Virus record (IMG/VR): IMGVR_UViG_2893967813_000002
Coordinates: 12,653 to 76,652 of that record
Length of the DNA stretch: 64,000 bases
Origin: a virus
Lineage: Duplodnaviria > Caudoviricetes
Direction: 5' to 3' (one strand)
Position 1 is the stretch's first letter. Each line of letters opens with the position of its first letter. Below the pieces are notes generated by a model that saw nothing but the letters and a program-made list of their open reading frames with translations, did no database searches and was not told the origin of the DNA. Positions 7,747 through 54,770 of this stretch are shown one piece after another. A program made the position numbers and the translations under genes.

Positions 7747-7983
7747 ATGTATTCTACAGTATTAAAAGAAATTATGGCATTTTTACTCGGACGAAAGTAT
7801 TATGCAAATATAATAGCAACAAGAGGTACAACGAAACAAGAAATTTGTTCCTACATCTTCGCTACAAAAGAAGCTGCTGAGCGGCATCGGGATGAAATTG
7901 AAACAACTCTGTCATTCCGGTATATCGAAACTATTTCGTTCCGTTCCCGAAAAGTCAGTTTGGAAGCGACAGTTAAAAGTTAA
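7747..7983 (+). CDS. Hypothetical protein
   Basis: 78-aa ORF. Confidence 0.6.
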   Translation: MYSTVLKEIMAFLLGRKYYANIIATRGTTKQEICSYIFATKEAAERHRDEIETTLSFRYIETISFRSRKVSLEATVKS

Positions 7984-8016
7984 ACCATCCGTGCACCCGT
8001 TCACTATTTATCTTTG
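7973..8016 (+). promoter_or_regulatory. Putative late promoter TTAAAAGTTAAA-N24-TATCTTTG
   Basis: Bacteroidales -7 box at 8009-8016; upstream motif at 7973-7984 with the same 24-nt gap as five other sites. Confidence 0.6.
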
Positions 8017-8020
8017 AGCT

Positions 8021-8446
8021 ATGATTTTCAAGAAAGTAAAAAAATGGTGGCAGTCACTTCGGTACTACGTCATTGCCGACCCTGCCGACAACTCTGTAAC
8101 ACTCTCAAAAGCGTTGTTCAATCATATCAAGAACGAAGCCTTTGGGAGTGATGAGGCTCGCGTGTTTGTGTTTAAAATAACGGATTCAGGATGCTTCGGG
8201 TTCATGACAAACCCAAGCATCGAGCAACCTACGCAAATGTGCAATATTCAGTACAATGGGAAATACCGTTGTATCGGTTTTGAAACACTCTGTCCGTCTG
8301 TTGGGCAAATCTTATATACATACGGATTAAATGCTTCACAGTGTGTCAAATTATCCGTTTCCGTATGCCGTACAGGGCAGGGTAAAGTTTACTATCAAAT
8401 AGAACGACCCCATGCAAAGCATATTAGGAAATACACGAAAGGCTGA
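8021..8446 (+). CDS. Hypothetical protein
   Basis: 141-aa ORF directly behind the promoter. Confidence 0.7.
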   Translation: MIFKKVKKWWQSLRYYVIADPADNSVTLSKALFNHIKNEAFGSDEARVFVFKITDSGCFGFMTNPSIEQPTQMCNIQYNGKYRCIGFETLCPSVGQILYTYGLNASQCVKLSVSVCRTGQGKVYYQIERPHAKHIRKYTKG

Positions 8447-8780
8447 TATTACTTTCCACGACAATGGACGTATCAATATATCTTCCAGAGTGTCCAAGTT
8501 ATTGGAATTGTCACATGGTGATGTGATTGATATAATGGACGGACAGGGTGAAATATATCTGTATGTCAAGCACCGTGTGCCGGTTGTCGGTAGGCACGAG
8601 GGGATGGTATTCCGTTCCAATAAGAACGGAAATCATTGTATAGCCTCATCCGTGATACTCTGCCGTTACATAATTACAAGGTGCGGAGGAAGTGGAAAGG
8701 TACGGTTGTGTTGTGGGACTCCTGTAGAATTGCAACACTACGGGAAAGCATTGCCGATTATAATTAAATACATATTGTGA
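8412..8780 (+). CDS. Hypothetical protein
   Basis: 122-aa ORF overlapping the previous gene. Confidence 0.7.
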   Translation: MQSILGNTRKADITFHDNGRINISSRVSKLLELSHGDVIDIMDGQGEIYLYVKHRVPVVGRHEGMVFRSNKNGNHCIASSVILCRYIITRCGGSGKVRLCCGTPVELQHYGKALPIIIKYIL

Positions 8781-8781
8781 T

Positions 8782-11478
8782 ATGATTAAAGAGATTAAAT
8801 ACAATGGTTATACCGCCAATCCGTCCGACTACGCATGTCCGGACGGAGATTTGGCAACATCAATAGGCTTTATTCCCGAAGATGGTTCACTTAAATCTAT
8901 ATTGCCACCATCTGAGGTGTTCCGGCTTGAAAGTGGGGCATCTGTCATGTATATCCATGAAACGGCAAACATAAAACATTACATCATCTTCAAAAACAAT
9001 GCGATTAGTTGGTGGGACGGCACAGATGAGCATGAACAGGTATCTCTTCGTACATTCAAGGAGATATACCAAATAAATGCCATTGGAAACACACTTCTCG
9101 TTTTGTCGGAAGATGGTATGCATTATTTCCTATGGAAAGGAAATGACGATGGGTATTTGTACCTCGGTACTAAAATTCCCGAATGCCCTTTGTCATTTGG
9201 TTTGCAAGGGGAAATGGTTCGCACGGATGAGTTCTCCATATCATTTGATGCCATTAACGAAGGTAGTATTTGGAATGAATTTTCAGATAGTAATAAAACA
9301 CGAATAACAGACCAAGTACTTGCACATGTAAACAAGTTTATTGCAGAGAGGTCAACCAATAAAGGAAAATTCCTTTTCCCGTTCTTTGTCCGATACGCCT
9401 ATCGCCTATACGATGGAACTTTGACAATGCATTCTGCCCCTATTCTGATGATTGCTTCATCTGACCTCGCACCGCAGGTTTTTTGGACGCACCTAACAGG
9501 AAAGGGGAAATATACGGATGCACAGCTGCGTGTATGCGGAATGCTACACGACCTTGACTATGCAGTCATTCATAATTCACGGCTTGAAATGATTAAGAAT
9601 TGGAGAGATATTGTTCGCTCGGTAGATGTTTTTGTTTCAAAACCGATTTATACATACGACCAAAACGGGAAATGCACACGGTTTGCTCAATCAGAAAGTT
9701 ATAATTCTTATTGCGTATGCAAGCATACCAATCAGGCTGCATCAACTTCAAAATACCCTCTTCGTTATCAGCGTCATACATTCAATAAACTGTATGCTTT
9801 TACTTTTGACCCGAACGGATTGACATATCCTGCCGGACGTTTGATGATTCCTCGTAGGAGCATTGATGATGTCAAAGAGGATATTCGCTCCACATCACAG
9901 TTCTATTTACTTGAGAGTATTCCTGTAGAGCAGCTTACAACGGCACGGACAAAATTGGTTGTTGAGGAAGACTATTTGCAGTCACTTGTCACTCGTGAGG
10001 TTATGACGGACGATTATGATAGCCATGATAAATTGTTGCCTAATTATTCTTTTGTGTATAACTCAAGGCTCAATCTTGCCAATATCAGGAAAGAACTATA
10101 TGACTTATATAATATTGGGGCAATGATACCATATACCAATGGTTATGTCGCACTCTGGAATGGAATGCCACCTACTCACATGGATGGAACGATGGGAGCG
10201 ACCGTTTACTTTTATATAAAACAAGATGGCCGGGATATTGTGGTTAGTGGAGAATCCTATCAGGTTTCATTCTATAGTCCTCCATTCTTATTTTTGTTCT
10301 ATCCCAATATAAACGCATATAAAGCAGTCATTGTAACTCACTATGGCATTCCTATGTATTATGAAGTCACATTGGAACAACATAAATTCCTCAATGGGTC
10401 TTTCTATTTTGCCGGTTGGGAAAATCCGAAAGAAGGTAGTAGCAGCTATCCTACTACAAGCCCATTGGTGGAAAGAATCATTGATTTGCCCAACAAAATA
10501 TATACATCGGAAGTGAACAACCCGTTTCATTTTCCGGTACTCGGCATCAATACGGTTGGAACAGGAACTATTCTCGGCATTTGCGCTGCTGTGAAAGCAT
10601 TGTCTGAAGGTCAGTTTGGACAGTTTCCTCTTTATGCCTTTACTACGGAAGGAGTATGGGCATTGGAAGTGTCTGCTACAGGAACATACTCTGCCAAACA
10701 ACCGATTACTCGTGATGTGGTCATCAATCCCGACAGCATTACCCAGATTGACACTGCCGTCCTGTTTGCTACCGATAGAGGTATTATGCACATCAGCGGC
10801 TCGTCCACACAATGTATATCCGACATCCTGAATACGGAGGATTTGTTCAGCATTGCCGACCTGCCTAAGTCTGATGCGTTGATAAACATCTTCAACGAAA
10901 AATCCGATGAAAGCGAAAAGATTACACTCGCAGACATCACGCTGTTGCCGTTCAACGAATTTCTACGAGGTTGCCGTATGGTGTATGACTATACCCACCA
11001 ACACATCATCGTATATAACAGTGCAGTGCGTTATGCTTATGTTTTCTCTTTGAAGTCAAAATTGTGGGGTATGATGTATTCCGATATTGTGGCTAATGTC
11101 AATTCCTATCCCGAAGCATTTGCCATGGCAGAAGGTTCGAGATTGGTCGATTTCTCCAAGTCTAATGCTGAGAATATAACAGCTCTAATTATTACTCGTC
11201 CGTTCAAGATGGATGCACCCGATTCGTTCAAGACTATAAATACTATCATACAGCGTGGTATGTTCCACTCGACCCATATCCGGCAGGTGCTGTATGGTTC
11301 AAACGACCTCATACATTGGCACGTTGTATGGAGCAGCGTGAATAACATTATGCGAGGCTTCAGGGGTACACCCTATAAATCCTACCGCCTTGCTCTTGTC
11401 TGCCGTTTTGATAAAGCGGAAAGCATATATGGATGTACCGTGGTGTTCGAGCCGCGTTTGACAAACCAAGTACGATAG
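8782..11478 (+). CDS. Virion stabilization/tail nozzle-like protein (P22 gp10/T7 gp12-type, inferred)
   Basis: 898 aa, beta-rich; C-terminal ALSEGQFGQFPLYAFTTEGVWALEV...PITRDV segment resembles podovirus stabilization proteins. Confidence 0.6.
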   Translation: MIKEIKYNGYTANPSDYACPDGDLATSIGFIPEDGSLKSILPPSEVFRLESGASVMYIHETANIKHYIIFKNNAISWWDGTDEHEQVSLRTFKEIYQINAIGNTLLVLSEDGMHYFLWKGNDDGYLYLGTKIPECPLSFGLQGEMVRTDEFSISFDAINEGSIWNEFSDSNKTRITDQVLAHVNKFIAERSTNKGKFLFPFFVRYAYRLYDGTLTMHSAPILMIASSDLAPQVFWTHLTGKGKYTDAQLRVCGMLHDLDYAVIHNSRLEMIKNWRDIVRSVDVFVSKPIYTYDQNGKCTRFAQSESYNSYCVCKHTNQAASTSKYPLRYQRHTFNKLYAFTFDPNGLTYPAGRLMIPRRSIDDVKEDIRSTSQFYLLESIPVEQLTTARTKLVVEEDYLQSLVTREVMTDDYDSHDKLLPNYSFVYNSRLNLANIRKELYDLYNIGAMIPYTNGYVALWNGMPPTHMDGTMGATVYFYIKQDGRDIVVSGESYQVSFYSPPFLFLFYPNINAYKAVIVTHYGIPMYYEVTLEQHKFLNGSFYFAGWENPKEGSSSYPTTSPLVERIIDLPNKIYTSEVNNPFHFPVLGINTVGTGTILGICAAVKALSEGQFGQFPLYAFTTEGVWALEVSATGTYSAKQPITRDVVINPDSITQIDTAVLFATDRGIMHISGSSTQCISDILNTEDLFSIADLPKSDALINIFNEKSDESEKITLADITLLPFNEFLRGCRMVYDYTHQHIIVYNSAVRYAYVFSLKSKLWGMMYSDIVANVNSYPEAFAMAEGSRLVDFSKSNAENITALIITRPFKMDAPDSFKTINTIIQRGMFHSTHIRQVLYGSNDLIHWHVVWSSVNNIMRGFRGTPYKSYRLALVCRFDKAESIYGCTVVFEPRLTNQVR

Positions 11479-11511
11479 TTTTCAGGTAAAACAGATTGTT
11501 TATAAAGAAGA

Positions 11512-11544
11512 AAGAGCCGGAATGCGTGATGCACCTCGGCTCTT
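11512..11544. terminator. Hairpin between convergent operons
   Basis: AAGAGCCG...CGGCTCTT inverted repeat. Confidence 0.65.
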
Positions 11545-11549
11545 GTCAT

Positions 11550-12080
11550 TTAAAACGGCTTGCATTTCCGTCTTATCTTGCCTTTTCTTGATACAAGCGA
11601 TGTCTGTATCTTTCTTTTCAGTTCCTTGAATTTCCCCTCCCAATTCGCTTGACTACCTGGATTGGTGATGCTCATCCAATCGGCAAGAACCCTGCATACA
11701 AGATACTCGTGTATCAGATGCTTCAGCAGCTTCACCGTAGTCATTGAAAAGCCAACCGGCAAATTCAGTACAATATCGTATGCTTCAGGAGCAGTCAGTA
11801 CATTATCGAAATTTTCTTGCGTCTCGCCTATTTCCGTTTTTGTATAGGGAAAAAGCATTTCCACACATTCGGCATGGGCAAGATTCAGTACCCTTGTTAC
11901 CCGGTCAATATTTCCTTTCTGACCGATGTCGAATACCTGATGCCGGGCGTGTACATCGTCTGTTTTCATGATGTCGCCCTCAACAAACGAATAGTTCTCG
12001 GCATCATATATCAGTTCCGACCGTTTGAATGTCAGTGTTACAGATTTAGTCTGTAGCTGATTATCATTACAGCAATACAT
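11550..12080 (-). CDS. Adaptor/tail tubular-like protein, paralog 3
   Basis: IHEYLVCRVLADWMSITN motif shared with neighbours. Confidence 0.55.
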   Translation of the reverse strand: MYCCNDNQLQTKSVTLTFKRSELIYDAENYSFVEGDIMKTDDVHARHQVFDIGQKGNIDRVTRVLNLAHAECVEMLFPYTKTEIGETQENFDNVLTAPEAYDIVLNLPVGFSMTTVKLLKHLIHEYLVCRVLADWMSITNPGSQANWEGKFKELKRKIQTSLVSRKGKIRRKCKPF

Positions 12081-12598
12081 TATTTATTGTATGTCGGTCG
12101 TTCCGGGCGACTGCGTTTATACAAAGCACGCTTCACATTCTCCAACGACACTCCCGAATGGGAAATATAGGTTTCTGCATCCTCCTTGTTGGTAATGGCG
12201 AACCAATCTCCAAGTGCCATGTCCACAAGGTAAGAATGTATGCCGTTTCCCAATGCGTCTGCCGATGAGTTATTGTAGTTGCTTGGCAACTCAAACGAAA
12301 GTTCAAGCACTCCGTCATTGTCAATCTGTTCGGCAATAAGGTTGTCGCTCGTGGTTTTGTCTTCCGACAGATATTCTCCGAGCAGGCTTTTTAGAGCCGA
12401 GAAAGCGTTGGCCAAGGAACGGCGGATTTGGTAGCTGTTCTCATCGTCATCACTTGCTTGCATGTTAGAGGCGGCTTCGTATGTCTTTTTGCCTTCTGCC
12501 TCTCGTGCCTGCCCGGTCAGGTATGCCTTGTTCTGAATGTCATAGATAAGTTCTTTGACTTGTTGCGTGACGGTCAATGTCTTTTTGTTCTCTGCCAT
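12080..12598 (-). CDS. Adaptor/tail tubular-like protein, paralog 2
   Basis: IHSYLVDMALGDWFAITN. Confidence 0.55.
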   Translation of the reverse strand: MAENKKTLTVTQQVKELIYDIQNKAYLTGQAREAEGKKTYEAASNMQASDDDENSYQIRRSLANAFSALKSLLGEYLSEDKTTSDNLIAEQIDNDGVLELSFELPSNYNNSSADALGNGIHSYLVDMALGDWFAITNKEDAETYISHSGVSLENVKRALYKRSRPERPTYNK

Positions 12599-12609
12599 AA
12601 TACATTTAT

Positions 12610-13068
12610 TTAATTGTTACTCGTATCGTATGTAGGGCGCATTGGCTTTTTCTTGAAAAACGCTTTGCGCATGATGTCCTCCAAATAGGTAGCGGCTTCC
12701 GAAGCATATCCGGTTGCTTCATTCTTGTTGGTAAATGTGTACCACTTGGCCGTGATGTTCATCACGAAGAATGAAAATAGGCTGCGTTGCATACTGGCAG
12801 TCAGACTGTCATCGAATGCTGTTGATAAACCTAATGTCAAAGAATACTCACCGTCCGTTTCTTTCTCCGATATAAGTACTTTTTTCAAACTATTGCAAAC
12901 CATATTCTTACACTCGTTCCAAAAGCGTTCAAGGATGGATTTATCCTCTTCGGTGGTCGAAATGGTTTCGTAGGCATGTTCATCATCCATCTTTGCCCCA
13001 GTGTATTCCGTTGTCTTTGCTACTTCCTCATACACGGTTTCTTTATTGATTTTCAATACTATCTCCAT
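12610..13068 (-). CDS. Adaptor/tail tubular-like protein, paralog 1
   Basis: FSFFVMNITAKWYTFTN. Confidence 0.55.
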   Translation of the reverse strand: MEIVLKINKETVYEEVAKTTEYTGAKMDDEHAYETISTTEEDKSILERFWNECKNMVCNSLKKVLISEKETDGEYSLTLGLSTAFDDSLTASMQRSLFSFFVMNITAKWYTFTNKNEATGYASEAATYLEDIMRKAFFKKKPMRPTYDTSNN

Positions 13069-13070
13069 AT

Positions 13071-13637
13071 TTAAAAACTAAATAGGTTATACGATATGCC
13101 CACTCCGAGGTAAGGGGCGAACTGTGGAGTTCCTCTCAATGTCATCCCATAGCCGACCTGTATGCCGATGCTCCATCTCTTGGGCTTTGGGCGTTTGGTT
13201 ATGGTCATGGTTTCATGCGGCATACGCAATATCAGGCTGTCAAGGCTTGTATTGTATCCGCTCACGTATGCTGTATAGGTGCTATCCTCATACACTTTCT
13301 GCGTAATCGGTATAAACACGTCCGCACTATCTGGAACGCTTTTGTCGAAATTCCCTAAACTATCCTGCGTATTGGGTACAAAATCGGGCGTTTTTGGGGG
13401 CGTTTCGGGTAATTTGGGAACGCTTACCGGCAATTTTGCGATTATATTTCCCAATGGCAAGGCCGCTTTGGGAACAGGCTTATAGTAAGGAATCGTGTCA
13501 TACACCGTCACCCTGACCGTGTCCGGCACCGCTGATTTCTCCTTGTGTCCGTTCAACCCCTTACCCCCATTCCACAGAACAGAGCCGATAAGCAGCATCA
13601 ACAGCACGCACAACAATATGTTTTTAGTCCTTTCCAT
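13071..13637 (-). CDS. Lysis-cassette membrane protein (spanin-like, inferred)
   Basis: N-terminal TM helix, Pro-rich linker, C-terminal WSIGIQVGYG...YLGVGISYNLF beta hairpin; follows the amidase. Confidence 0.55.
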   Translation of the reverse strand: MERTKNILLCVLLMLLIGSVLWNGGKGLNGHKEKSAVPDTVRVTVYDTIPYYKPVPKAALPLGNIIAKLPVSVPKLPETPPKTPDFVPNTQDSLGNFDKSVPDSADVFIPITQKVYEDSTYTAYVSGYNTSLDSLILRMPHETMTITKRPKPKRWSIGIQVGYGMTLRGTPQFAPYLGVGISYNLFSF

Positions 13638-14221
13638 ACTTGTAATCCCAATCCGTCAATGCTGTAACATGAGTTCGCACAATGGCATCACGCCCTTTAT
13701 CTGAAGTAAGGTAAGCTACATCCTGCTCATTGTCCATGAAAAAGTTTTCCGTAAGGACTGCAGGGCATTTTGTTTTGCGCAGGATATAGAAAGCTTCTTC
13801 CCAGTCAGGGTCACCGTCCGATAAACCTTACGGATTGTAAGTCCGGCAAAATTCTTTTCCGCTTCGGCATACAGCATGGTGGCAAGTTCATCGCTCTTGG
13901 TTTTGCCTTTGCTTGTATAGGCACTCCAACCACGGGCCTTGCCCCATTCACCGTTTTTCGATGCGTTGCAATGAATGGAAACAAGTACCACATTCTCAGC
14001 ACCAAAACGCCCACAAATCTCATTCACACGTCTTACTCGTTCTTCAAGGGGTATGTCTTCGCTTTCGGTTACAATGCGCTCCGCATCAATGCCCAAAAAT
14101 TTCAACTCTCCCTCGATGCTTTTTGCTATTTCTCGTGCGTAGCTGTATTCTCTGAACTTACCGTCAGGCTACGTTTTCCCGGAGTATTCTCGCCATGTCC
14201 GTTGTCAATCAATATTTTCAT
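13624..14221 (-). CDS. N-acetylmuramoyl-L-alanine amidase endolysin (Amidase_3), two frameshifts
   Basis: MKILIDNGHG, LVSIHCNA, FYILRKTKCPAVLTENFFMDN; restored by +1 nt near 14168 and near 13825. Confidence 0.85.
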
Positions 14222-14239
14222 GCTTGGTAATTTATTGGG

Positions 14240-14599
14240 TTAGTATTCGCTTGGCGGAATTCGGTCTGCACAACCGTGTTTGTTACATTTTCGGAATTCC
14301 AGTGCCTGATTTTGAACGGCAAGTTCGCTGTTCTTTTCACTTAGTTCGCGGATAGTGTCGCGATATTGGGTTATCTCAGTATAAAGGTGGTCAATCTTTG
14401 CGTCCAGTTCGGCAACCCGCTTTTCTTTCTTCTCGTACAATTCTTTCCACTCCGCAGCATAAGCTGTGATGTTGTCCGCCTCAGCTTTCTCAGCCTCGGA
14501 ATCTGCTTTTTTTGTCTTGCTTTTAATCAATAGTAAGGGTAATATCACCAATGTGATGAGAGAACCGATAACTTGGATAATCGTGCTTAATTGCTCCAT
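14240..14599 (-). CDS. Holin-like/coiled-coil membrane protein
   Basis: N-terminal TM helix plus coiled coil, upstream of the endolysin. Confidence 0.55.
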   Translation of the reverse strand: MEQLSTIIQVIGSLITLVILPLLLIKSKTKKADSEAEKAEADNITAYAAEWKELYEKKEKRVAELDAKIDHLYTEITQYRDTIRELSEKNSELAVQNQALEFRKCNKHGCADRIPPSEY

Positions 14600-14832
14600 A
14601 TCAAAGTTCCTCCAATTAAACATCCCAAACAAACTCCGGCTATCGTTAAACCGAAATCAATCCAATCCCATTTGCCGCCATGCGCCTTGTCCTTATATTC
14701 CAATGCACCTGCCGTCAATACTCCGGCATACACCCCGGTAAACCAACCGAGTGCAAAAATGCCGATAATCAGTCCTCCAATGAGGTGTTTCCACCTGTTG
14801 CTCATTCCGAGCCAATCAATAAACTTTTTCAT
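14587..14832 (-). CDS. Small multi-TM membrane protein (possible holin)
   Basis: RWKHLIGG...LEYKD...WDWIDFGLT, three hydrophobic segments. Confidence 0.55.
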   Translation of the reverse strand: MKKFIDWLGMSNRWKHLIGGLIIGIFALGWFTGVYAGVLTAGALEYKDKAHGGKWDWIDFGLTIAGVCLGCLIGGTLIWSN

Positions 14833-14840
14833 TGTCATCG

Positions 14841-15323
14841 CTATTTTAAATTAAACATAGTCCAATCCACACTGTCTTTTTCCCTCCATCCGTCCTGAAC
14901 GGTCTTTATCACATAGGCACACACCGATTGGGAGAACGCAATAAAATCATCTGCATTCTCGAAAGTATGATAGATGGGCGTACCATCTTCCTGTTCGTTG
15001 ATTTTTAGGGTAAGCGGATAAGGGATGTTTTCACTTCGCTCTATGGCGGAAAAGTTCAGTTGGTTCTCGGTAGAAAGGTATATCTGCTTCTTGTTCCAGA
15101 CAAAACCGTTTATAATCTTCTCCTCCGTTGTCTTGTTTATAGCGGACACGACAATCTCTTTGACCTCGGAAAGTGTAGGCTTGCGGTTGAATGTATGCCT
15201 GTATTCCCAACCGCTTTCACTCTTTTCATCGTCTTTCCAAAAGCCAAAAAACAATATCCACTTGGAGCGTCCTGTACGCACAAGACAATCCTGCCGCTGC
15301 TTTGTGCCGTAAATCTTTTCCAT
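14841..15323 (-). CDS. Hypothetical protein (DUF4376-like, tail fibre assembly-like)
   Basis: INGFVWN..IYLSTENQLNF...W..KDSVDW pattern. Confidence 0.5.
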   Translation of the reverse strand: MEKIYGTKQRQDCLVRTGRSKWILFFGFWKDDEKSESGWEYRHTFNRKPTLSEVKEIVVSAINKTTEEKIINGFVWNKKQIYLSTENQLNFSAIERSENIPYPLTLKINEQEDGTPIYHTFENADDFIAFSQSVCAYVIKTVQDGWREKDSVDWTMFNLK

Positions 15324-15345
15324 TTTTGTGAGTTTTGATTTCAGG

Positions 15346-15389
15346 CAAAAATAGCGGAATCCAAGTGGATTAATATGTTATCCTTTTAC
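15346..15389 (-). promoter_or_regulatory. Putative late promoter GTAAAAGGATAA-N24-TATTTTTG for the lysis cassette
   Basis: Plus-strand TTATCCTTTTAC 15378-15389 and CAAAAATA 15346-15353. Confidence 0.7.
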
Positions 15390-15391
15390 CA

Positions 15392-16879
15392 TCAGGTAAA
15401 ATTGTATTTTCTCTTTCCTCCGTCAAATACCTCGCATTTGAGAACCGTTTCAAATGGGAAACCATCTTCAATGTCGCTGATTTGGTCAAGAATGCCTTTC
15501 ATCTCAACAGAAGCTGTAAAGAACTTTCCCCATTCTTGGGTTGTAGGATTGCGGAAAGATACAAGATAACGGTCTTCTCCTTCTTTGGTATCTATACCCG
15601 TTTCAAAATCATGTATCTCAATTGGTATATTTACGATGTCACTCAATCTCATTACTTTTCCGGGAAAGCGTTTCTTTCCGTCAGCAGGAGTATATGTAAC
15701 TCCCATTTCTGAAAATTTCTTCATTTTCTTGTTTGTAAGTATGTAAAACAAATGTTTGCAATCAGCATGGCAAGCCATTCCTTTGAATGAACCTATGATT
15801 TCCTGCCTTCTTTTGCGTGATTTGACTTTGGCAAGATTTCTGGCTGCATTCTGTTTCGTCCGTTTCCTTAGCAAGGAATACTCCCCGAAATTCACATAAC
15901 CCAAAGCATCCATGCCGGATGAAATGGGGGCGACTTTCTCGCTGGGCTTGATGGTCAGTCCAAGTTTGGCACTTTCTTCATGTAGGCAATTCCTTAGTCT
16001 CCACAACTCCTTTTTGCTTTCGCCGAGGATAAAGGTGTCATCACAAAAACGGAAATAATATGACGCACCGTGCTGTTCTATCATCGCATGGTCAAGGTCA
16101 TTTAGATACAGGTTGCCGAAAAACTGGGAGGAACGAAGTCCCTTGCTGATACCGGCATCCGCATCGGGATATAACACTTTGACAAAATTCTCCAATATCG
16201 GCAGCAAAATCGGGTCGGCGATGTATTTCCTGATTTTGTCTATCAATATGCTATGAACGATATGGTCATAGTAGCCTTGATAGTCTGATTGATAGAAGTA
16301 TTTCAGGTTTGGATTTGCTTTCATTGCGGCTTGAATGGCATGAAACAAACCTTGCGGCCCTCTTCCCTTGATGGAAGCTGCAGTTGTCTCTATCAGAATG
16401 GGAGTAAGTTTTTCCTCTATGATTTCCATAATGGCATTACTGCCCATCCTTTCAAAGACAGCAGGGGCTTGGACTGTCCGTATTTTAGGACCGTCTTTCG
16501 TTTCAAAGGATTTTAGCGTGTTGACTCGGAAAATTCCATTTCCTATCTGTTCTTTCATTTTTGCAAGTATGGTATCTCGATTGAGTACATATCGTACTTG
16601 GCGTGCTGTGTACTTCTTTCCATCAATTAAGACAGAGTTCCTTTTTTCTGCTTCGGTAGAGGATTGGCTGAGGTTTGACAGCACACGCTTGAATGACGAC
16701 AATAGGTTTTCTTCCGTTATTATTTCGGGGATGAGGTTGTATAAAGGATAACTGACCGAAGGTGTTCCCCCGGTCAGTCCTATAAAATTGTCCGTATCAT
16801 CATAGACCGCCTTCCGGTCCCGTGAGGAGGATATGAAACCCTCCTCACTTGTGGTTAAAGATATGTTCCGGCTTTCCAT
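15392..16879 (-). CDS. DGR reverse transcriptase with C-terminal extension
   Basis: ASIKGRG, YQSDYQGYY, GISKGLRSSQ (DGR-type GxxxSQ), YFRFCDD, LGY; adjacent TR. Confidence 0.95.
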   Translation of the reverse strand: MESRNISLTTSEEGFISSSRDRKAVYDDTDNFIGLTGGTPSVSYPLYNLIPEIITEENLLSSFKRVLSNLSQSSTEAEKRNSVLIDGKKYTARQVRYVLNRDTILAKMKEQIGNGIFRVNTLKSFETKDGPKIRTVQAPAVFERMGSNAIMEIIEEKLTPILIETTAASIKGRGPQGLFHAIQAAMKANPNLKYFYQSDYQGYYDHIVHSILIDKIRKYIADPILLPILENFVKVLYPDADAGISKGLRSSQFFGNLYLNDLDHAMIEQHGASYYFRFCDDTFILGESKKELWRLRNCLHEESAKLGLTIKPSEKVAPISSGMDALGYVNFGEYSLLRKRTKQNAARNLAKVKSRKRRQEIIGSFKGMACHADCKHLFYILTNKKMKKFSEMGVTYTPADGKKRFPGKVMRLSDIVNIPIEIHDFETGIDTKEGEDRYLVSFRNPTTQEWGKFFTASVEMKGILDQISDIEDGFPFETVLKCEVFDGGKRKYNFT

Positions 16880-16984
16880 AAATAATATATTATAATGCTT
16901 TTGCCGAGGCGCGAACCCCTCGGAGAATATAATTGCCCAACTCGTAGGCGTATAGGGTCTCCGATTAGTTAACCATCAGAATTT

Positions 16985-17094
16985 GAGCCGACCACCGTAG
17001 TTCGTGTTCGAGTTCGAAGATGCGTTGTTCGCGTTCGCATAAGCGAGACCGGAGTTCGCATTCGAGTTGTTGCCAGACCGAAGAACACAGCGGC
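16985..17094 (-). ncRNA. DGR template repeat (TR)
   Basis: 110-bp copy of 17969-18078 with 10 AAY codons; all differences at adenines. Confidence 0.96.
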
Positions 17095-17119
17095 GCGCGG
17101 GGTTGTCTGCCTTTATGTA

Positions 17120-17422
17120 TCAAATGGCGAATTTTCCTAAACCTACTATTTCAAGGTTGATACTCATTCCCATTGCACGAAATACTTTTCTGATTGTCTG
17201 TATGGTAAGATTGCTTCCTTTCTCAATGCGAGAAATCTGCGCTTTCTTAACTCCAATCATTTCGCCAAGCTGTTCCTGAGTGATGTTTCTTGATTCACGG
17301 GCTTGTTTGATTGCCTCACCAATCAAGAACGCATCAACCTTTGCTTCATATTCGTCACGTCTTGGAGTTCCTTTAACCCCAATTACGCTGTCCAGCATTT
17401 CTTCGTGAGTGTAAAGTTTCAT
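17120..17422 (-). CDS. higA: HigA-like XRE HTH antitoxin
   Basis: IKQARESRNITQEQLGEMIGVKKAQISRIEKG; ATGA overlap with the upstream toxin. Confidence 0.85.
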   Translation of the reverse strand: MKLYTHEEMLDSVIGVKGTPRRDEYEAKVDAFLIGEAIKQARESRNITQEQLGEMIGVKKAQISRIEKGSNLTIQTIRKVFRAMGMSINLEIVGLGKFAI

Positions 17423-17763
17423 ATCTTCTGCTTTTTATCGTTAAAATACTGTTTTCTAATATTCTCTGCCTTATCAATTTCTTTTGATGGGGTCTTCTGC
17501 GTTTTCTTTATAAAGCCGTGAGTGGCAATTACCAAAGTGTCCTCTTCTGTATCCCAAAATGCCAAAAGCCGATAACAGATGCCATTGTAAAGCGTTCTGA
17601 ACTCCCAAATATCCGTACCTTCCAATTTCTTAAAAAGTTCTTTGTCTATGACAACTCTACTTTTGAAGATATTATAAGCGATTTTATCTTGTACCTTCTC
17701 CGGCAAAGAATGGATAAATTCATAAGCTTCTTCTGTATAAACTATTTTGAATCTCGTTTCCAT
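17419..17763 (-). CDS. higB: HigB/RelE-family (Gp49-like) toxin
   Basis: KKLEGTDIWEFR...YRLLAF...THGFIKKTQKTP; toxin-first gene order. Confidence 0.85.
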   Translation of the reverse strand: METRFKIVYTEEAYEFIHSLPEKVQDKIAYNIFKSRVVIDKELFKKLEGTDIWEFRTLYNGICYRLLAFWDTEEDTLVIATHGFIKKTQKTPSKEIDKAENIRKQYFNDKKQKI

Positions 17764-17784
17764 TATTAACTTGATTTCCTTTTG

Positions 17785-17818
17785 CAAAGGTAATAAACAG
17801 TTTACATATAAAGAAACT
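17785..17818 (-). promoter_or_regulatory. higBA promoter (-7 TACCTTTG) with candidate operator AGTTT-N10-AAACT
   Basis: CAAAGGTA 17785-17792; inverted repeat 17799-17818; no late-promoter motif. Confidence 0.55.
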
Positions 17819-26993: not shown

Positions 26994-27011
26994 ATACTTG
27001 TAAATTAAAAA

Positions 27012-27036
27012 GGGATGGGACTCCTTATCCCATCCC
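27012..27036 (-). terminator. Intrinsic terminator after capsid gene
   Basis: GGGATGGGA-7nt-TCCCATCCC then TTTTAATT on the minus strand. Confidence 0.75.
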
Positions 27037-27063
27037 CGGTTATTGATTTCTTTTTGTGGATTA

Positions 27064-29364: not shown

Positions 29365-29408
29365 CAAAAATAAGCTAAGATACACGCATTCTATGTTTAT
29401 CTTTTTAC
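29365..29408 (-). promoter_or_regulatory. Putative late promoter GTAAAAAGATAA-N24-TATTTTTG for scaffold/capsid operon
   Basis: TTATCTTTTTAC 29397-29408 and CAAAAATA 29365-29372. Confidence 0.7.
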
Positions 29409-29419
29409 GCTCCAATAGG

Positions 29420-29427
29420 TAACTTTG
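29420..29427 (+). promoter_or_regulatory. -7 box TAACTTTG for the terminase operon
   Basis: Matches TAnnTTTG about 30 nt upstream of the 29460 ATG; lacks the late motif. Confidence 0.5.
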
Positions 29428-30347: not shown

Positions 30348-32437
30348 ATGCAGGAGGAAATCAGACTTATCATCGAAGAAAACAACCGCCGAAACGCAGA
30401 GGTGTATGCACGCTTTGACCCAATTGGCGGTTTCGGTTCGGTTGGGGAACGTGTAAAGGTCTGTATAGAGGACTTCCCGATACGCACCCAATACCTGCCT
30501 GTCGAAATGATGGATGTACCGCTTGTTCGGCAACTTGTCGAATGTGGCTCTGTCAAGGCATTCTTGCAGGAACTTGGAAATGCTAAAGAGGAAGATTATG
30601 AAAGCGACCGGCTCAAAGTAATAAGCCAGTTTGTGCGCATACGTAACAAATATGACTTCCCATTTTGGGCGGCAACATTCGTCTATATCAAGAACAAGGG
30701 GGGCGGCGAAGATGTGTTATTTCGCCTTACTCGACCGCAACGCCGTTTCGTTGAAAGGTTGGAACGATTGCGAAAAGCAGGTAAGCCTATACGCCTTGTC
30801 TTGCTGAAAGCACGGCAATGGGGAGGTTCTACCACCTCGCAAATATATATGGCATGGTTACAGTTGGTTCATAAAGTAGGACTGAACTCACTTATCATCG
30901 CCCATCAAGGTGCTGGTTCGGATGAAATCAAGGATATGTTCGACCGTATGATAAAGAACTATCCGGTGGATATGCTGCACAAACTGGGTGAAACATACAG
31001 CGAGAATGAGCCTAAAATGGTCGGGGTCGGTAAGTCGGGCAGTATTCATCGTGTACCGCAACGCAACTGTAAGATTAAGATTGGTACTGCCGAACGACCT
31101 GACTCCTGCCGTGGTGGAGACTACAACCTTGTGCATCTGTCCGAGGTCGGACTATGGAAAGCGACAGATGGGAAGAAGCCCGAAGACATTGTGCGCTCTG
31201 CCTGTTCGGGAGTGCTGCTGCGTCCATATACAATGATTGTATATGAAAGTACAGCTAATGGTACAGGTAATTTCTTTCAAAAAGAGTATGACGATGCTAA
31301 GAACGGAAAATCCCAGTTCGAGGCAATGTTCGTGTCGTGGTTTGACATAGAACAGTATTCGTTGCCTCTTGACGATGTGGAAGCTTTTGCACAAATGCTG
31401 TATGCAAACCGTGAGAATGACGGCATACCTTCATCCCGTGAGGAAAACGGCAAATATCTGTGGTGGCTGTGGGAGAAGGGCGCAACGCTTGAAGCTATCA
31501 ATTGGTACATACAGGAACGTGCCAAATATACCGAACACGGATTGATGGCGGCAGAGTTCCTTCCGATGATGTTGAGGCGTTCGTTCATTCCGGCGCACGT
31601 GTGTTCGACAAATACAAGGTCGAGAAACTTAAAGCATCATGCAAGCCTCCACGATATGTAGGAGAAGTATATGCCGATGGTGATGAGGGGAAGAAAGCAT
31701 TGCAAAACCTCCGTTTTGTTGGTGACAGCCAAGGCTTGCTACATATTTGGGAAATGCCTGAGATTTACGATGACGAAGTGGTAACCGACAGATATTTGAC
31801 GGTGGTCGATGTCGGTGGGCGTTCCAATAAGGCTGACTGGTCTGTCATTGTCGTGTTCGACCGTCTCTTCATGACTGACGGAGGAAAACCCACCGTTGTG
31901 GCGCAATGGTACGGACATATAGATATTGACCTTTTGGCGTGGAAAGCGGCACAGATAGCGGCTTTCTATGACAATTCCATGCTTGTGATTGAGAGCAACA
32001 CACTTGAAACACATGACAAGGAAAGGCAGGTGGACGGAGACCAATCCCAATTCATTCTCAATCAGATTAAGGATGTTTATCCCAACCTGTACGCACGCAA
32101 GCAGTCGGAGGAGGCTATTCGGGAGGGATTGCCAGTGAACTACGGTTTCCACACCAATATAGCCACAAAGCCGATGGTAATCTCAACCCTTGTGAAAGTC
32201 ATCCGTGAGAGCCTGTATGTTGAGCGTGATGCCCGTTGTCTGGACGAATATCTGTGTTATGAGAAGAAACCGAACGGGGCGTTCGGGGCGATTATCGGTA
32301 AACACGATGACTTGTTGATGACCCGTGCCATTGGTCTGCACATCTGTTTCTTTGAAATGGATATGCCTAAATTCGTACCTCGTGTGGGAAGATATATCAG
32401 CAGGAAGAAAAAAGCGGTATCTGCCGCAACAATATAG
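30348..32437 (+). CDS. terL: Terminase large subunit, frameshift near 31560
   Basis: LLKARQWGGST, HLSEVG, VYESTANG, VVDVGG, HDDLLM; one missing C joins EF-PSDDVEAF. Confidence 0.88.
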
Positions 32438-35537: not shown

Positions 35538-35573
35538 AATCGTTAAATATTATCAGAATGCTTAGGATAGACA

Positions 35574-35617
35574 CAAAGGTACTATCCAAAGCATTCCTTT
35601 CAAGTATAACTATTTAC
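35574..35617 (-). promoter_or_regulatory. Putative late promoter GTAAATAGTTAT-N24-TACCTTTG for portal
   Basis: ATAACTATTTAC 35606-35617 and CAAAGGTA 35574-35581. Confidence 0.65.
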
Positions 35618-47600: not shown

Positions 47601-50600
47601 GGATGTTCAAGTGTAGGTTTAATCATACCCAATTTACCATTTCTGCCTTGTCGCATCAATTTTGTAAATTGGTTTTCACCCATTTTTACATTGCCTATCG
47701 GTGTTGTGACGATACCATCTTCACCGAATAGGGCATCCCAGTTTTCAATAGTGAGGTCTATTTCAGGAGCAATTTCAGCACTCAATTCCATATCTGCAAT
47801 GAAGTCTTGTGCTTCATCCGCAGTCATGGAACGGCCAATTACTTCCGTTGCATCATTTTCCTCTTCTTTATTTCCTCTATCTTCGCTCTCAACTCCGCTT
47901 CTTCCACCATCTCTTTCAATTCTTCCTCCACTGTCGGCTGTCCCATTTCCGTCCTCAACTCGTTCTCCTGCCGGAGCATCTCCCCAGCTTCCTTGCTGCC
48001 CTCGTTGGCCTGTTGCAGTATCGCCAACCAATACATTGCTTCGCTGTTGTCCATCGTAGATAATGTTTAATGTTTCGTAAATAGCCTGTGCAAGCGTCCG
48101 GGGAGTGTTGTCCGGCTGCTCGAACAGGGTTGCTTCCTGTGTGCCTTGAATAAGGTCATAGATTCTGTTAAATGTATTTTGGATAATGCCTTGGGTTTCT
48201 CCCTTGTACATCGTTGCCAAAAGCAATGCGAAGTTACTGAAATTATCGGCAGGGAGATAACTTTCGCCCGTTGCATCATCAATCTGGTATTGGTGTTTCC
48301 AACTTTCAACGGCTATCCGTGCCTCTTTGAAATTTTTCGCATCGGTAAATTGTTTGTCCTGCGACAAGGCATAATAAGCCCGGATTGAGTTCTGTATCTC
48401 CTCAACCATACGCTCTGCATTCGGACTGTCATAATCCCGGAATGCCGTTGCGAGAATAGCCTTTTGAGCCTTTACAGGCAACGCGTTGAACATTTCTTCA
48501 AGACGGACACTGCCACCCTTGAAAATGCTCTGATACATGATTCCACGCAAATCATTCTTGGCTTCGGCGGTCAGGTTACCCTTGCTGTCAAATGCGCTGC
48601 TGTATTGGGTCGGTGTGATGTAGCCTTTCTGCATCATCCATTTCAATACATTTGTACCGTTGGCATCCACGAGTCCTGCAAATGAAGTCTCCTCATCGCT
48701 CGAAGCAAGCAATAGGTTGGCGAACGAACGCATATCATTGCCCATCTTCTGCATGATGTTCTTGGGCTTTATACGTTCTATACCTCCGCTTTCTGTGTCC
48801 TGTGCGACAAACTGACCGAGATTGATAGCCTCGGTATCGTCCACTTCAAGCATATTAACGAGGACAGGACGTTCCACAGAATCAATATCCTCGGCACGCA
48901 ATCCAAATTCGTCTGCGTGGTCTTTCAGATACTGCTTGTACTGCTCTGCCTGGTCTTTGTGACCATACCACATCTGACGGAGTGCGTCACTTCGGTTGTT
49001 GCCCTGTATGACTTCCCCTCGTGCATTTATGGTAGGTGCGCCTGTATATGCAGTGACAGAAGATGTGATTTCTTCAGGACGAATGTTTCCGGCAATCTTT
49101 CGGGCAGACAATACGCTTGCTTCATCATTACGCTCCTTTGGCTGTGCCTCATCAATGAAGTGAAGCGGATTTCGCACACCTTGAACGTGACTCGGTTGCA
49201 ACAAGTTTGCATCAATCACGGATATACGACCGCCTACAATAGCATCATCACTGAATTTTACGGATACCTCCTTTCCCATCAATGCCTGTACAGGCTCTTG
49301 TCTGTCTATCTTATGACCGTTCATGCGTCTGTAACCTCTTGCCCGTGCATCCTGCGGCTTGTCGTCCACCATGTCCGGCACTCCGTTTAGGGCTTCACGC
49401 TCGATGCGTTCTACCTCCTCACGTTCGGCACGCAACTTTTCTTCTTCCGCCTTTCTCAATGCGGCTGCTTCATCGGCAATGCGTCTGCGTTCAGCATCCG
49501 CTTCCATTTTTCTGCGATTGGCGGTACCGGCTATCTTCTGCCAAACGAGCAATTCCTGTTTGGCCGCATCAATCGCCGCCTTGCGTTCTTTCTCGGAAGC
49601 AATTTTTTCGGCAATAGAATTACCGCCTTTCGATTTGGCTTTCTCCTGTTTCTTCAAGGCTTCTTCCTTGTCGGCAACCATTCCATCGGCTACAGTCTGT
49701 GCCATAGCCTCATCACCCTCGGTCTGTTCCACAATGGCATCCCAAGCTGTGTCGCTGTCGGCCTGCTCATATAATGGATTTCCCTGCTCATCCTTTGGTA
49801 TTCTCTGCATTGCAGGAATATTTTGATGGGCATTGTTATCATTTTCGGGAATATTTTCCGCACCATTGTTGCTCTCATTTTCGGCAGGATGTTCAAATGT
49901 CACTCCGTTATGCTCCAACAGCATATTGTCAAGTTCATCACGAGTGAACAGGTTCACACGCTTGCCGTTGATAGGAGCTTCGGTAAATACCTCATACTTG
50001 CCGTCCGCATCGGCATCTGCTGTGATATTGCCACGGACGGTAACACCGTTCTCATCGGTAAGCGAAACAATGTCATTGAGGGCGTATTGTGGTCTTTCAG
50101 CCTCTTGCATTTCCTGTTTCCGTTCGGTATTCTCAATGGTTCTCTGCTGCTCGAACTGCGCCACACGTGCCAAATTTGCCGCATCAGCCTGTTGCTGTAT
50201 GGTTTCTTTTGCCAACGGGAAGATATTCACGCCGTCACTCACGTTAACTGTGCCGTCCCCATTATCCACAATACCGTCTTCGTTGGCTACAATCTGAACC
50301 TGTATCTGTGCGTCATCTCCTGTAATGGTGTATGTATCGCCGGGGTTGAATGTAACCACACCGTCAATCTTGTCGGATGCTTCTTGTGCGAACTGTTGAA
50401 TGATAGCCTCCTCCGCTGTCATTTTCTCATCGGATGGGTTCAACGGTTCATCAATGTTCAATACGGCATCGGGCGACACCTGTTCGAGTGCGCCTGTTTC
50501 CGCATCACGGACAATGATGCTACCGTCCGAAGCCTGATTGTCAATGCTGCTGCCGTCTGCATATGGCACAAGGTTTCCACTCACGACATACACGCGGCGG

Positions 50601-53056
50601 TCGTCCTGTTTCATCGTTGCCCCCTGTATCATGCCATTGGTGCGGTTGGTACGTGCATCGACCATTGCATTGCTTTGCTCCACACGTGCATCTATGTCAT
50701 CACGCACACGTTGAATCATACCGTCATATACCTGCTTGGCATTTAGGTAGTCCAATATGATGTCTGCACGCTCATGTCCTTGTTCGTTGCCGCTGCTCGA
50801 TGCGTTCCGTGCCTCGTTCAGCCAGTCCACAGCATCATTCACAAGGGCTTCATCGTTCACTCCCAGCTCGCGTTTCATCCTCTCCCTCTGGTACTCGTAC
50901 ATATTCTTGGCATCGGTCATTTCCTGTGGGTCTGCGATATTGTAACCATCAATGTAGCTTTCATCCATTGACTGCACATCCTCGTCCTGTTCGCCGCCCC
51001 GTTTCTGTACGAGAGTACCGAGGTTAAAGCCCCTCATCATCAACGAACGCTCCATGTAGGTAAGGATTGCGGCTCTCTCATCGTCAGAGAAATTCTTGTC
51101 GTTTACAATTCCATCTGCCACGCTGCCAATGTCATCATTGGTCGTAAGGTCGATAGTCGTCCTTAACGGTTCCCATATTTCTTTGCCAAGCAATTCTGTT
51201 GCACGGGCATCAGCCTTGTTTACTCCGTGCTTCATTGAAGCATACTGCGCTCCTGACAATGTAGCCTTACCTGCGCCCATCAATCCCATAGAAAGAGCCA
51301 TGCCGCCCCAAATGTCGCCGTGGAATTGTCCTGTTGCAAGCAAGTTGGTGCGTGTGCCATCCGGGTTATGCTGGTACGCATCGTCCAGATTGAGCATGGT
51401 GCGCCACAATTGCCCATAGTATTCTTCCGTTACCTCTCCAAAATAGTCACTCACACCCATTTTGTTGAATAACTGATGTGTCTGTCCCATGATACCGTTC
51501 AACGCACCTGCATCAGCCTTTGAAAGCACTGCACCGATACGCTTTGCACCCACCACATTGGCGAGCTTACTCATATTTCCAAGAGTAACTACAGGGTCAA
51601 GGTGCGAACCGAACATTTCCGAATAATTTTCAACGATGGCATTGGCTTCTCCTTGCCAAATGGCATTTCCCCAAGTCTTGTCGTTGGAAAAATCATAGTT
51701 TCCGTTCTCATCGACAACCACATCACCGAGTTTTCTGTCAATAATGTCGGCTGTGGTTTTCCCTGCCTGTACCGTATTGGTCATAAGCGGAGCACGGAGA
51801 AGCAGGTCATCAGCGGTCGTACCGAGAGCCTTAATGGTCCAATTGGTTGCATATTGTCCCAAACCTTTCACGCCGTTGTTTTTCAGGTATGTCTTGAAGC
51901 CCTGTTCCGCCAGTTTCTCTACTACTTCTTTGCCCACCACCTTTGTGGCAGCTTTCGTTCCGGCTTTGGAAAGAACATTGATACCGTTGAATCCACCTCC
52001 TGTAATACCAAAGTCAAGCATGAATGCAGGCATATGGCCGGTCATCATACCGGCTCTGTTCCAAAAGCCAGCGTTCCCACCATACATCTGCTCCGCCTGT
52101 CCTTTGTTGTAGAGTGCGCCCATCATTTCATTGTAGGCTTCACGCTCTCCATCCGTGGCATTCTCACCTTTCAGGTCATCGGCGTTCATCATCGTCAAAG
52201 CGTCACGCATATCGCTCATGCCGAAATCCCAAGTGCGGAAATCGCCTGCCACACGACCGAAACCACGCCAAAAGCCTACATCTACACCTTGTTCACGGTC
52301 TTTCTGTTCTTCAAGGTCTTTGATAAGTTCCTCTGTTTGACGAATGGCGACATCCAAGGTACTGTTTTCCCTGTCGCTCATCTGACGAGGAACATAGGTA
52401 TCTGCTGCAAGCAAGAATCCAAGAGGAGCTGTATTCTTTTTTGTATCTTCTTCCCATTGTTCATGCACTCTATTGGCACTTGCATCTCGTTTTTCTTGCA
52501 GTTCTGCAAGTTTCAGCCTTGCACGGCGTAGTTGTCCGCTTACAGACATATCAGCCGCCTGTCGGTATCTGAAACTCTCCATGTCTGCAAGTCCCTTACT
52601 GGTGTATCTGTTGCCAAGAGGGGTAATGTAGGTTTTCTCCAACTTTCCGCTCTCTGGGTTGAACTGTATTTTCCCTTCTGCGGTCTGTCCTCCACCCAAT
52701 GGTGCATTTTCTTGGTACTCACGCATGGTCTCCATTTGTTCGCTGAAACCGTCCAACATTTGCTCCGTGCGGCGTTTCATTTGCCCCATATTTGCACTGA
52801 AGCGTATTTTGTCCTGTTCCGTCAGCGGCTTTTCTTTTGCTGTAGAGATTACAGGAGTTTCGGGTGTAGAGTCCGGGGCAGTCTGTTCAGGCTGTTGCTG
52901 TTCCGACATGAAAGTCTTGTAGTCTGCCGACTTTACACGATATTTCTTTCCCTCACGCTCCATGATTGTAGAAGCATCGGGAAAATCTTTCATAAAACTG
53001 TCAATGTGTTCATCACGCACATTGTATTTCTTTCCGTTGTATTCAAATATTGGCAT
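35610..53056 (-). CDS. Giant polyvalent DarB-like virion protein (~5,816 aa after repairing three frameshifts)
   Basis: ORFs 45794-53056, 39477-45821, 36409-39540 and 35610-36344 join near 45955, 39545 and 36412. Contains N6-MTase (EGSAGIG, NVPF), SNF2 helicase (HEVGTGKT, DEAH), iPPase-like and HExxH domains. Confidence 0.82.
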
Positions 53057-53058
53057 AG

Positions 53059-54200
53059 TTATTTGTTTTTACCGGGTGTATAATCAATCACATCGTCATC
53101 GCCGCCACCGGGAACATAGTCCACAACCTCATTATTCAGTTCTGAGGTCATGGCGGCAGGGTCAAGTTTGGAGAGAGAAAGCATGATTGCAGAGGCTTTC
53201 GGCGATTTGTGCCAATTCTGTTTCACAAAATCGTCTTTATCTCTTGCCGACATCTTGTTGATTTTATTCTTGTACCTTGTATCGCTCAGGTCTCCTTTTT
53301 CCACTCCATCCGTTATCATCGCATCAAACACTTGCTGCATCGACCTTTCCAAACATTCTCGTAAATGGCTACTTGGTTTCCGTCACCGTCAGAAAAACCG
53401 AGTTGTTTGCCACGGACACCACGTGCGGCTGTCGCTCTCGCTTTATCACGCTCTACAGCCACATTGTCATTATGCCTCTTTACTTGGAAATTGTAGGAAC
53501 GGTCAGCTTGACGTTTGTTTTCGTCAAATGTCGTTTGCCAACGCTTATCGGCTTCTTTATCTCGACCTTTCTTGTATTCTTGTTCTGCATCATATCGGTC
53601 ATCGGCGATTTTCTCCCGCTCGTTACGATGCTGAATGCTCTCATTGTATCGGTCATCATTCTTTTGGTCAAGACCGAGTTGCCTTTGCCAAGAACGTTCA
53701 CGGTGTGCTTCTTCTGCATCCGCCTGTTTCGCCCTAATCAAGCCATTGAAATATGCGTTGTTCTTTTCCTCTCGGTCTTTCATCAACTTGTCATATCGGA
53801 TTTTTGTACGCTCCGACATGGTGTTCTTGCCTGTGTACATGTTCGGTGCGCCCTGTGTCGTAAAAAAGAGATTGGAGAGAGCCATAACGCCATCCCCAAT
53901 TGCAGCAAAGATTTCATTTCTTCGCTGTTTCTTCTTTTCTTTTTCAATTTCCTCCGCTGTTGGTGGGGTATAAGGGTTAAGTTGCCGGAACAATGCTTCA
54001 TAGCCACCTCCACCTGCCGGAGTTCCTCCGTCTGTCGGCGGTGTGCCATTCTGCTTTGCCGGAGCCGGTGGTGCAGTCGGGGGAGAGGAAGCCGGTGCAT
54101 TATTCTCTGAATGTTGTTCCGTCCATTCCTTTGTGCCTTTTGGTGCATATCCTCCGTTACCTGAAGAAGTGCCACCCAATATCTCGTCTAATGTTGCCAT
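53059..54200 (-). CDS. Internal virion/ejection protein (inferred), frameshift near 53345
   Basis: 53316-54200 joins 53059-53352 as VWKG-SMQQVF with +1 T. Confidence 0.6.
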
Positions 54201-54211
54201 AGTCGTAGAAT

Positions 54212-54691
54212 TTAGAAAGGCATGGATGAAGCGGCATTGGCGACACCTTGCACAGCCTGACCGATTGCCTGTGCTTTCCCTTGTTCAAGTTGGTTAAGCT
54301 GCTCCACGAAAGCATTGTCGTTCGCCATGTAGGTAGCCTCTATGTTGTCTTTCCGTGCCTCTGCATTGGCTGCAATCTGCGATGTCGCATCGGCGAGTGC
54401 CTGGTTGTTTGCCGCTTTTGCAGCCGCCACACTCTCATCCGTGCCGCCCATCACAGCCGCCGAACCTGCCGCCTGTTTGTTTCGCTGTTTGATACTCTCT
54501 TCGGTCTGTGTCAGAATACGCTGTGCATCGGCACGCTGGGTAGCGTCCTCATTATAGCGTCTGTCATACCAGTCTTGGTTTTTCTGCCGCTGCGCCTCTA
54601 CATTCTTCTTTGCCCTTTTCATTGCCTTTGATGCAGAGATACCGCCGAAGATACTGCCCGCTGCACCTATTGCACTTCCAATAAGTCCCAT
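54212..54691 (-). CDS. Internal virion/DNA-transfer pilot protein (inferred)
   Basis: Gly/Ala-rich N-terminus MGLIGSAIGAAGSIFGG followed by Ala/Gln coiled coil. Confidence 0.6.
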   Translation of the reverse strand: MGLIGSAIGAAGSIFGGISASKAMKRAKKNVEAQRQKNQDWYDRRYNEDATQRADAQRILTQTEESIKQRNKQAAGSAAVMGGTDESVAAAKAANNQALADATSQIAANAEARKDNIEATYMANDNAFVEQLNQLEQGKAQAIGQAVQGVANAASSMPF

Positions 54692-54704
54692 ATGTATGTG
54701 AATT

Positions 54705-54770
54705 GTTAATAGTTATACTTCTAATGCAAAACTAACCACATACCTTTGAGCCATTGTTTTATCCTTTTAC
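54705..54770. promoter_or_regulatory. Overlapping divergent putative late promoters
   Basis: Plus: GTTAATAGTTAT 54705-54716, N24, TACCTTTG 54741-54748. Minus: motif 54759-54770, N24, CAAAACTA 54727-54734. Confidence 0.72.

Follow-up and report, generated by a model that had tools for sequence, protein, structure and literature searches.

A private upstream box that, together with a host -10-type box, defines a late class of promoters is familiar from the phages T4, Mu and P2. The middle promoters of phage T4 combine a MotA box with the sigma-70 -10 element and are the site of sigma appropriation by MotA/AsiA. The late promoters of phage Mu are activated by C and its Pm promoter by Mor; class II activator sites are centred at -41.5. 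For phage B124-14, which infects Bacteroides, the promoters P_BfP1-5 and their engineered form P_BfP1E6 were reportedly described by Whitaker, Shepherd and Sonnenburg in Cell in 2017. Very little is known about the timing of Bacteroidota phage genes or about activation at atypical primary-sigma promoters. The canonical Bacteroidota primary-sigma promoter consists of a -33 TTTG and a -7 TAnnTTTG (PMC7366714). Here we describe a 14-nucleotide (nt) word that takes a fixed place upstream of TAnnTTTG boxes in a stretch of 64,000 nt (the window), bases 12653-76652 of the 76.6-kb IMG/VR virus record IMGVR_UViG_2893967813_000002. The phage carries an integrase, a CI-like repressor, the reverse transcriptase of a diversity-generating retroelement (DGR), a T7 gp14-family internal protein and giant internal proteins, a gene set of a temperate phage. 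The promoter feature is solidly supported, and the comparative evidence supports its assignment to a phage-private class that heads virion and lysis operons.

The 12-mer GTWAAWRGWTAW occurs exactly six times on the two strands of the window, compared with 0.28 expected copies and a maximum of two in 100 shuffles. Every copy precedes a TAnnTTTG -7 box, and in five of the six the box follows after exactly 24 nt (expected 0.00). The sixth copy, in front of the 'nozzle' operon, is GTTAAAAGTTAA (7972-7983), with a gap of 25 nt that measures 24 nt in most relatives. The original prediction, made from the letters of the window, had described six promoters with a shared 12-bp element at a constant distance of 24 nt. 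All six sites read as described; the distance holds at five of them but not at the nozzle site, where the proposed word, TTAAAAGTTAAA at 7973, is the same site taken one base off. The word is real, but in relatives the conserved unit is longer: two extra conserved bases (A, C/A) extend the 12-mer to the 14-mer GTWAAWAGWTAWAC, and the true gap between word and box is therefore 22 nt. A weight matrix built from relatives returned the six sites as the top six matches in the whole 76.6-kb contig, and the next-ranked matches lie in coding DNA without a -7 box. The six promoters are the following (aa, amino acids).

7972..8016, plus strand: promoter 1, 'nozzle' operon (141-, 122- and 898-aa genes); element GTTAAAAGTTAAAC 7972-7985, 23-nt spacer, box TATCTTTG 8009-8016.
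15346..15389, minus strand: promoter 2, lysis operon, first gene 160 aa; element GTAAAAGGATAACA 15389-15376, 22-nt spacer, box TATTTTTG 15353-15346.
29365..29408, minus strand: promoter 3, scaffold-like 262-aa gene and major capsid gene; element GTAAAAAGATAAAC 29408-29395, box TATTTTTG 29372-29365.
35574..35617, minus strand: promoter 4, portal operon; element GTAAATAGTTATAC 35617-35604, box TACCTTTG 35581-35574.
54727..54770, minus strand: promoter 5, ejection operon (T7 gp14-family 159-aa gene, then giant internal proteins); element GTAAAAGGATAAAA 54770-54757, box TAGTTTTG 54734-54727.
54705..54748, plus strand: promoter 6, 101-aa gene, divergent from and overlapping promoter 5; element GTTAATAGTTATAC 54705-54718, box TACCTTTG 54741-54748.

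The earlier claim that all six head virion or lysis operons is supported for ejection (T7 gp14 family), portal, capsid and lysis; 'nozzle' and 'terS-like' (the 101-aa gene) are labels taken over from the original prediction, and a search for solved relatives of the 101-aa and 141-aa proteins found none. An endolysin is present in the counterpart of the promoter 2 operon in Bacteroides phage BS-TP4, a cultured relative (~79% DNA identity over a 10-kb head-module probe).

All six sites share the -7 box of the canonical promoter. They differ from it in that the -33 TTTG, which would stand 19-20 nt upstream of the box, is missing from each of them, and the 14-mer ends 22 nt (23 nt at the nozzle site) from the box. 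Elsewhere in the contig, which has only ~10 intergenic -7 boxes in front of genes, the canonical TTTG-N19 layout is found at the early promoter (~4.7 kb before the window) and at promoter 60342 (-). With the TA of the box at -12, an assumed numbering, the word spans ~-48 to -35 and is centred at ~-41. On sequence evidence we consider it probable that the word is a binding site near -41 for a phage-encoded late activator working with the host sigma-A polymerase. In the phage-private late promoter proposed here, the word would form the upstream half and the Bacteroidota primary-sigma -7 box TAnnTTTG the downstream half. Upon induction, a protein encoded in the early operon of the phage would bind the 14-mer as an activator rather than a repressor, abut the position of sigma region 4, either in the class II manner or as an analogue of sigma appropriation, and recruit or stabilise host sigma-A RNA polymerase at six promoters that would be poor on their own. 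Transcription from the presumed start sites would then switch on the tail/nozzle, lysis, capsid, portal and ejection operons and one small gene jointly.

This arrangement resembles the T4 middle promoters in that a phage box at a fixed distance takes the place of the -35-type element while the host's -10-type element stays; the box would define a temporal class. It differs in the predicted centre of the box (~-41, compared with -30 in T4) and in serving late genes of a temperate phage. With the targets of Mu C and other class II activators it would share several dispersed late promoters, a poor -35 region and, if TA is at -12, an upstream site that abuts -35; however, no dyad is evident by eye in the 14-mer, and the type of host sigma is different. 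Among the subset of phage proteins scanned, we recognised neither MotA or AsiA relatives nor a helix-turn-helix activator of the Mor/C type, and the candidate proteins discussed below have no informative family or fold match.

Relatives of the capsid gene number >400 in IMG/VR and are also found in 68 loci of Bacteroidales genomes and metagenome-assembled genomes, including Phocaeicola massiliensis, Bacteroides congonensis and Segatella copri; the carrier genomes belong to Bacteroides, Phocaeicola, Segatella, Muribaculaceae and Rikenellaceae. The promoters upstream of the scaffold/capsid genes were taken from relatives with 60-100% capsid identity by position alone, and the 98 loci were reduced to 39 non-redundant ones. 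Counted from the TA of the box, these 39 promoters concentrate their information content at -36 to -23 and in the -7 box, where it is high; across the 22-nt spacer it is close to zero. The -33 position (-22 to -19 from the box) carries practically no information either, both in 108 promoters and in the 39 non-redundant ones. The portal, lysis, ejection, 101-aa-gene and nozzle promoters of relatives behave in the same way as the capsid promoter, and in some relatives the -7 box is TAnnTTCG. A check in related prophages, which the original prediction had proposed, thus found word and 22-nt gap kept and the spacer free. The divergent ejection pair overlaps face to face here and stands back to back in S. 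copri, and each arrangement keeps the word-N22-box layout. One could take the words for functionless relics of duplicated promoter modules, as the element copies of the portal and 101-aa-gene promoters have 13 identical bases in common. We find this hardly credible, given that the spacers are unrelated while word and gap are kept across the family.

The word also appears to be restricted to prophages. Five carrier genomes (20.6 Mb in total) contain eight matches to the strict pattern without mismatch and 15 with at most one, and all of these lie within ~25 kb of a prophage capsid gene; prophage membership was judged from these coordinates, and prophage ends were not mapped. The possibility, raised beforehand, that the motif is just as common in host DNA is therefore not borne out for the strict pattern, which was not seen outside prophage regions in the five genomes. 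A relaxed 10-base core in the same register gave nine prophage and four host matches, compared with three in the reversed control. This distribution bears on the reading of the word as the -35-type element of an alternative sigma, be it a host extracytoplasmic function (ECF) factor or an unrecognised phage sigma. The fixed spacing of the two boxes is typical of sigma recognition. However, a host sigma should have host targets, and none were seen in the five carrier genomes; moreover, the downstream box is the housekeeping TAnnTTTG. A phage sigma factor was rejected, as the phage contig has no match to the Sigma70_r2 or r4_2 domains at E<=1. We regard an alternative sigma as very improbable.

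When we compared the word among relatives, we noticed that it changes in concert at the sites of one genome.

GTAAAAAGnTAAAC: this phage and BS-TP4, six sites each.
GTTAAYGGATAAGA: Segatella copri prophage, six sites.
GTTAAAAGATAAAA: relative G004, four sites.
nTTAAnAnATAAAA: relative G005, four sites.
GCGTAGWTAT: relative L329, two sites, 22-nt gap kept.

Word identity is 11.5/14 within a genome and 10.0/14 between genomes, a difference that none of 10,000 permutations reaches. Co-evolution of the sites with a trans-acting reader that the phage itself encodes would be expected to produce such a concerted change.

An operator role would explain the restriction to phage DNA, the fixed position and the concerted change equally well: a repressor encoded by the phage would bind the word and silence the six promoters of virion and lysis genes in a lysogen. 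We consider this quite unlikely: the site lies upstream of the core promoter and not over it, it shows no evident dyad by eye, and the immunity and early control region by the CI-like repressor gene has no high-scoring copy of the word.

The terminase operon, which is divergent from the capsid promoter, had been listed among those whose promoters lack the element. This needs qualification, since the capsid copy stands inverted in front of its box.

29420-29427, plus strand: -7 box TAACTTTG of the terminase-operon promoter, with the capsid-promoter element inverted 11 nt upstream.

The arrangement is conserved, and this box is the only other conserved block in the 39-promoter set. One protein bound to the inverted element next to the terminase box could affect both divergent promoters. 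The inverted element also supplies a TTTA with a 20-nt gap to the terminase box, which comes near to a -33 (29395-29427).

Two small proteins are candidates for the reader of the word.

7747..7983, plus strand: candidate reader 1, 78-aa protein (phrog_30965), last gene of the long early/replication operon.
8412..8780, plus strand: candidate reader 2, 122-aa AbrB/MraZ-like protein, second gene behind promoter 1.

The stop codon of the 78-aa gene lies inside the element of promoter 1. Of 35 carrier genomes, 31 have the gene as a single copy, and in many of the 30-odd related loci inspected it directly precedes an element-type promoter. A profile search found the family in BS-TP4, G004, the S. 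copri prophage and L329 and did not find it in phage BF1-TP2, which also lacks the N22 layout. Searching with distant family members, P0206 led to one locus, L329, with its variant word at the 22-nt gap, and P0243 gave no match. The structural model of the 78-aa protein (predicted local distance difference test, pLDDT, 84) has an alpha-beta-beta-alpha-beta order; nothing informative was found in Pfam, PHROGs or NCBIfam, nothing by sequence profile search of the PDB, and the protein atlas returned unnamed viral clusters only. For the 122-aa protein, sub-threshold AbrB matches appeared in two libraries, and its model (pLDDT 88) shows two tandem beta-beta-alpha-beta-beta repeats of the AbrB/MraZ/B3-like kind; Foldseek found no match for it. 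Neither family has a member in phage B124-14. The reader may be the 78-aa protein, the 122-aa protein or both, and we treat either assignment as a lead. As a tentative proposal, a new family of small proteins (the 78-aa protein, perhaps with the single-chain 122-aa protein) would read the word and stand in for the contact between sigma region 4 and -33.

The S. copri prophage has an additional open reading frame between its 78-aa family gene and its nozzle promoter; it is 80 aa long and cysteine-rich (zinc-ribbon-like; L319:12082-12324, plus strand). The early operon also encodes an HU/IHF-type DNA-binding protein (1581-1859, plus strand; Pfam Bac_DNA_binding, E 2e-19), which was set aside as a reader after tblastn at 1e-3 found no match in two distant prophages.

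As for the late regulon under an activator or sigma-appropriation protein that had originally been proposed, the phage-private class, the conserved spacing, the exclusivity and the concerted change agree with it, but no activator or sigma-remodelling protein was recognised. Several further points weigh against a phage activator. The word is A-rich, and in the assumed numbering AAAAAGATA falls at the position of the E. coli proximal UP subsite AAAAAARNR. Neither candidate reader has a convincing DNA-binding prediction. The model of the 78-aa protein has no known fold (Foldseek E<=0.001; the best VIA hit has a Z of 5.3, with scattered unrelated folds), and the co-occurrence of its gene with the element is confounded by shared ancestry. 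The best structural matches of the 122-aa protein are weak (VIA: MraZ with a Z of 3.9, then plant B3 DNA-binding domains), and no member of its family turned up in the S. copri prophage or L329. The missing -33 is no proof that an activator is needed, because many Bacteroidota promoters lack a clear -33 (PMC7366714). Finally, the B124-14 promoters, which carry the word GTTAAAACTTAAA(G/C), are strong and constitutive in uninfected Bacteroides (10.1101/2025.03.18.644028).

These points lead to the reading of the word as a UP-like element read by the host, in which the alpha subunit C-terminal domain (alpha-CTD) binds the A-rich word at the proximal position and the promoters are strong without a phage factor. 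Four promoters of the B124-14 P_BfP type combine the TAnnTTTG box with an upstream word that matches 12 to 14 of the 14 consensus positions found here. Uninfected Bacteroides express genes strongly and constitutively from P_BfP1E6, the upstream part of which has been termed a UP element (10.1101/2025.03.18.644028; 10.64898/2026.10.27.762397). In host DNA, we found promoters with a similar A-rich core at the 28-nt register (eight, compared with three in the control), three of them with a canonical TTTG directly after it. Because of the constitutive B124-14-derived promoter and these host cores, an A-rich word upstream of -33 can work with the host polymerase alone. The words of B124-14 and of the host, however, stand 28 nt away from the box, and a -33-like TTG separates word and box, in contrast to the 22 nt (23 nt at the nozzle site) without a -33 seen here. 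No host enrichment was found at the 22-nt register, and one match had an intermediate gap. The B124-14 copies also head non-structural gene blocks of a lytic siphophage. In addition, the conserved G1, T2, G8, T10 and A11 and the variants without an A-tract, GTTAAYGGATAAGA and GCGTAGATATAC, do not fit recognition by alpha-CTD. Since the word is 6 bp nearer to the box, replaces the -33, has conserved non-A bases and is not A-rich in some lineages, a sequence-specific reader fits better. A lysogen could also hardly bear lysis and virion promoters that are always on. The lysis operon follows its -7 box after 23 nt with no hairpin obvious by eye, so that the lysogen would have to control it at the promoter. 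We therefore consider a UP-like element unlikely.

We found no published description of the element in the literature on late promoters and motifs of Bacteroides phages, and promoters go unmentioned in the BS-TP4 paper (PMC12694917), according to which this phage occurs in 31% of 930 gut viromes. Should a new family of small proteins indeed read the word, it would give the Bacteroidota phages their first defined system of late-gene activation or sigma appropriation, shared across a temperate phage family that ranks among the most prevalent in the human gut. The compact and portable unit of 14-mer, 22 nt and -7 box offers a direct test for a phage activator and a means to annotate late regulons in gut prophages. 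If the unit proves activator-dependent, Bacteroides engineering could gain an orthogonal switch to complement the constitutive promoter from B124-14 that is in use already.

A more distant relative, BF1-TP2 (PQ571263; L330/L331), with 45% capsid identity, lacks promoters of the word-N22-box type. Its repeated word is instead TTTTATYGTTATGG, which stands 16 nt before each of the two -7 boxes of the ejection intergenic pair, over the start codon of the scaffold-like gene (upstream of capsid) and before the portal gene; this repeat may be a different late signal.

Two of the six promoters show additional features. The first ATG of the nozzle operon is at 8021, 4 nt past the box, and the distance is 4-5 nt in most relatives inspected (loci L333-L362), so the nozzle mRNA is probably leaderless. 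In many relatives, the box of this first nozzle gene is TAnnTTCG. The portal -7 box sits at the top of a strong hairpin (35555-35597, minus strand; dG -21.1 kcal/mol, z -6.2), whose arms differ in sequence among relatives but remain complementary. The ejection operon upstream may have its terminator in this hairpin, in which case the loop would hold the promoter of the next operon.

Further observations concern the neighbouring genes. A terminator-like strong hairpin with a T-run lies directly 3' of the major capsid gene (27011-27037, minus strand). No -7 box was seen upstream of the genes that come next after capsid, a 212-aa gene and the 2646-aa DGR target, and both may therefore need read-through. 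In terL (30348-32437), the reading frame shifts at ~31559, so that residues 6-406 are in one frame and 407-698 in another when compared with the single 698-aa terminase gene of BS-TP4; a frameshift, an error in the assembly or a defective gene copy may explain this. Finally, an Rfam RT-3 RNA match was found at 16806-16966 on the minus strand (61 bits, E 6e-12); it runs from inside the 5' end of the gene for the DGR reverse transcriptase (15392-16879) into the sequence upstream.

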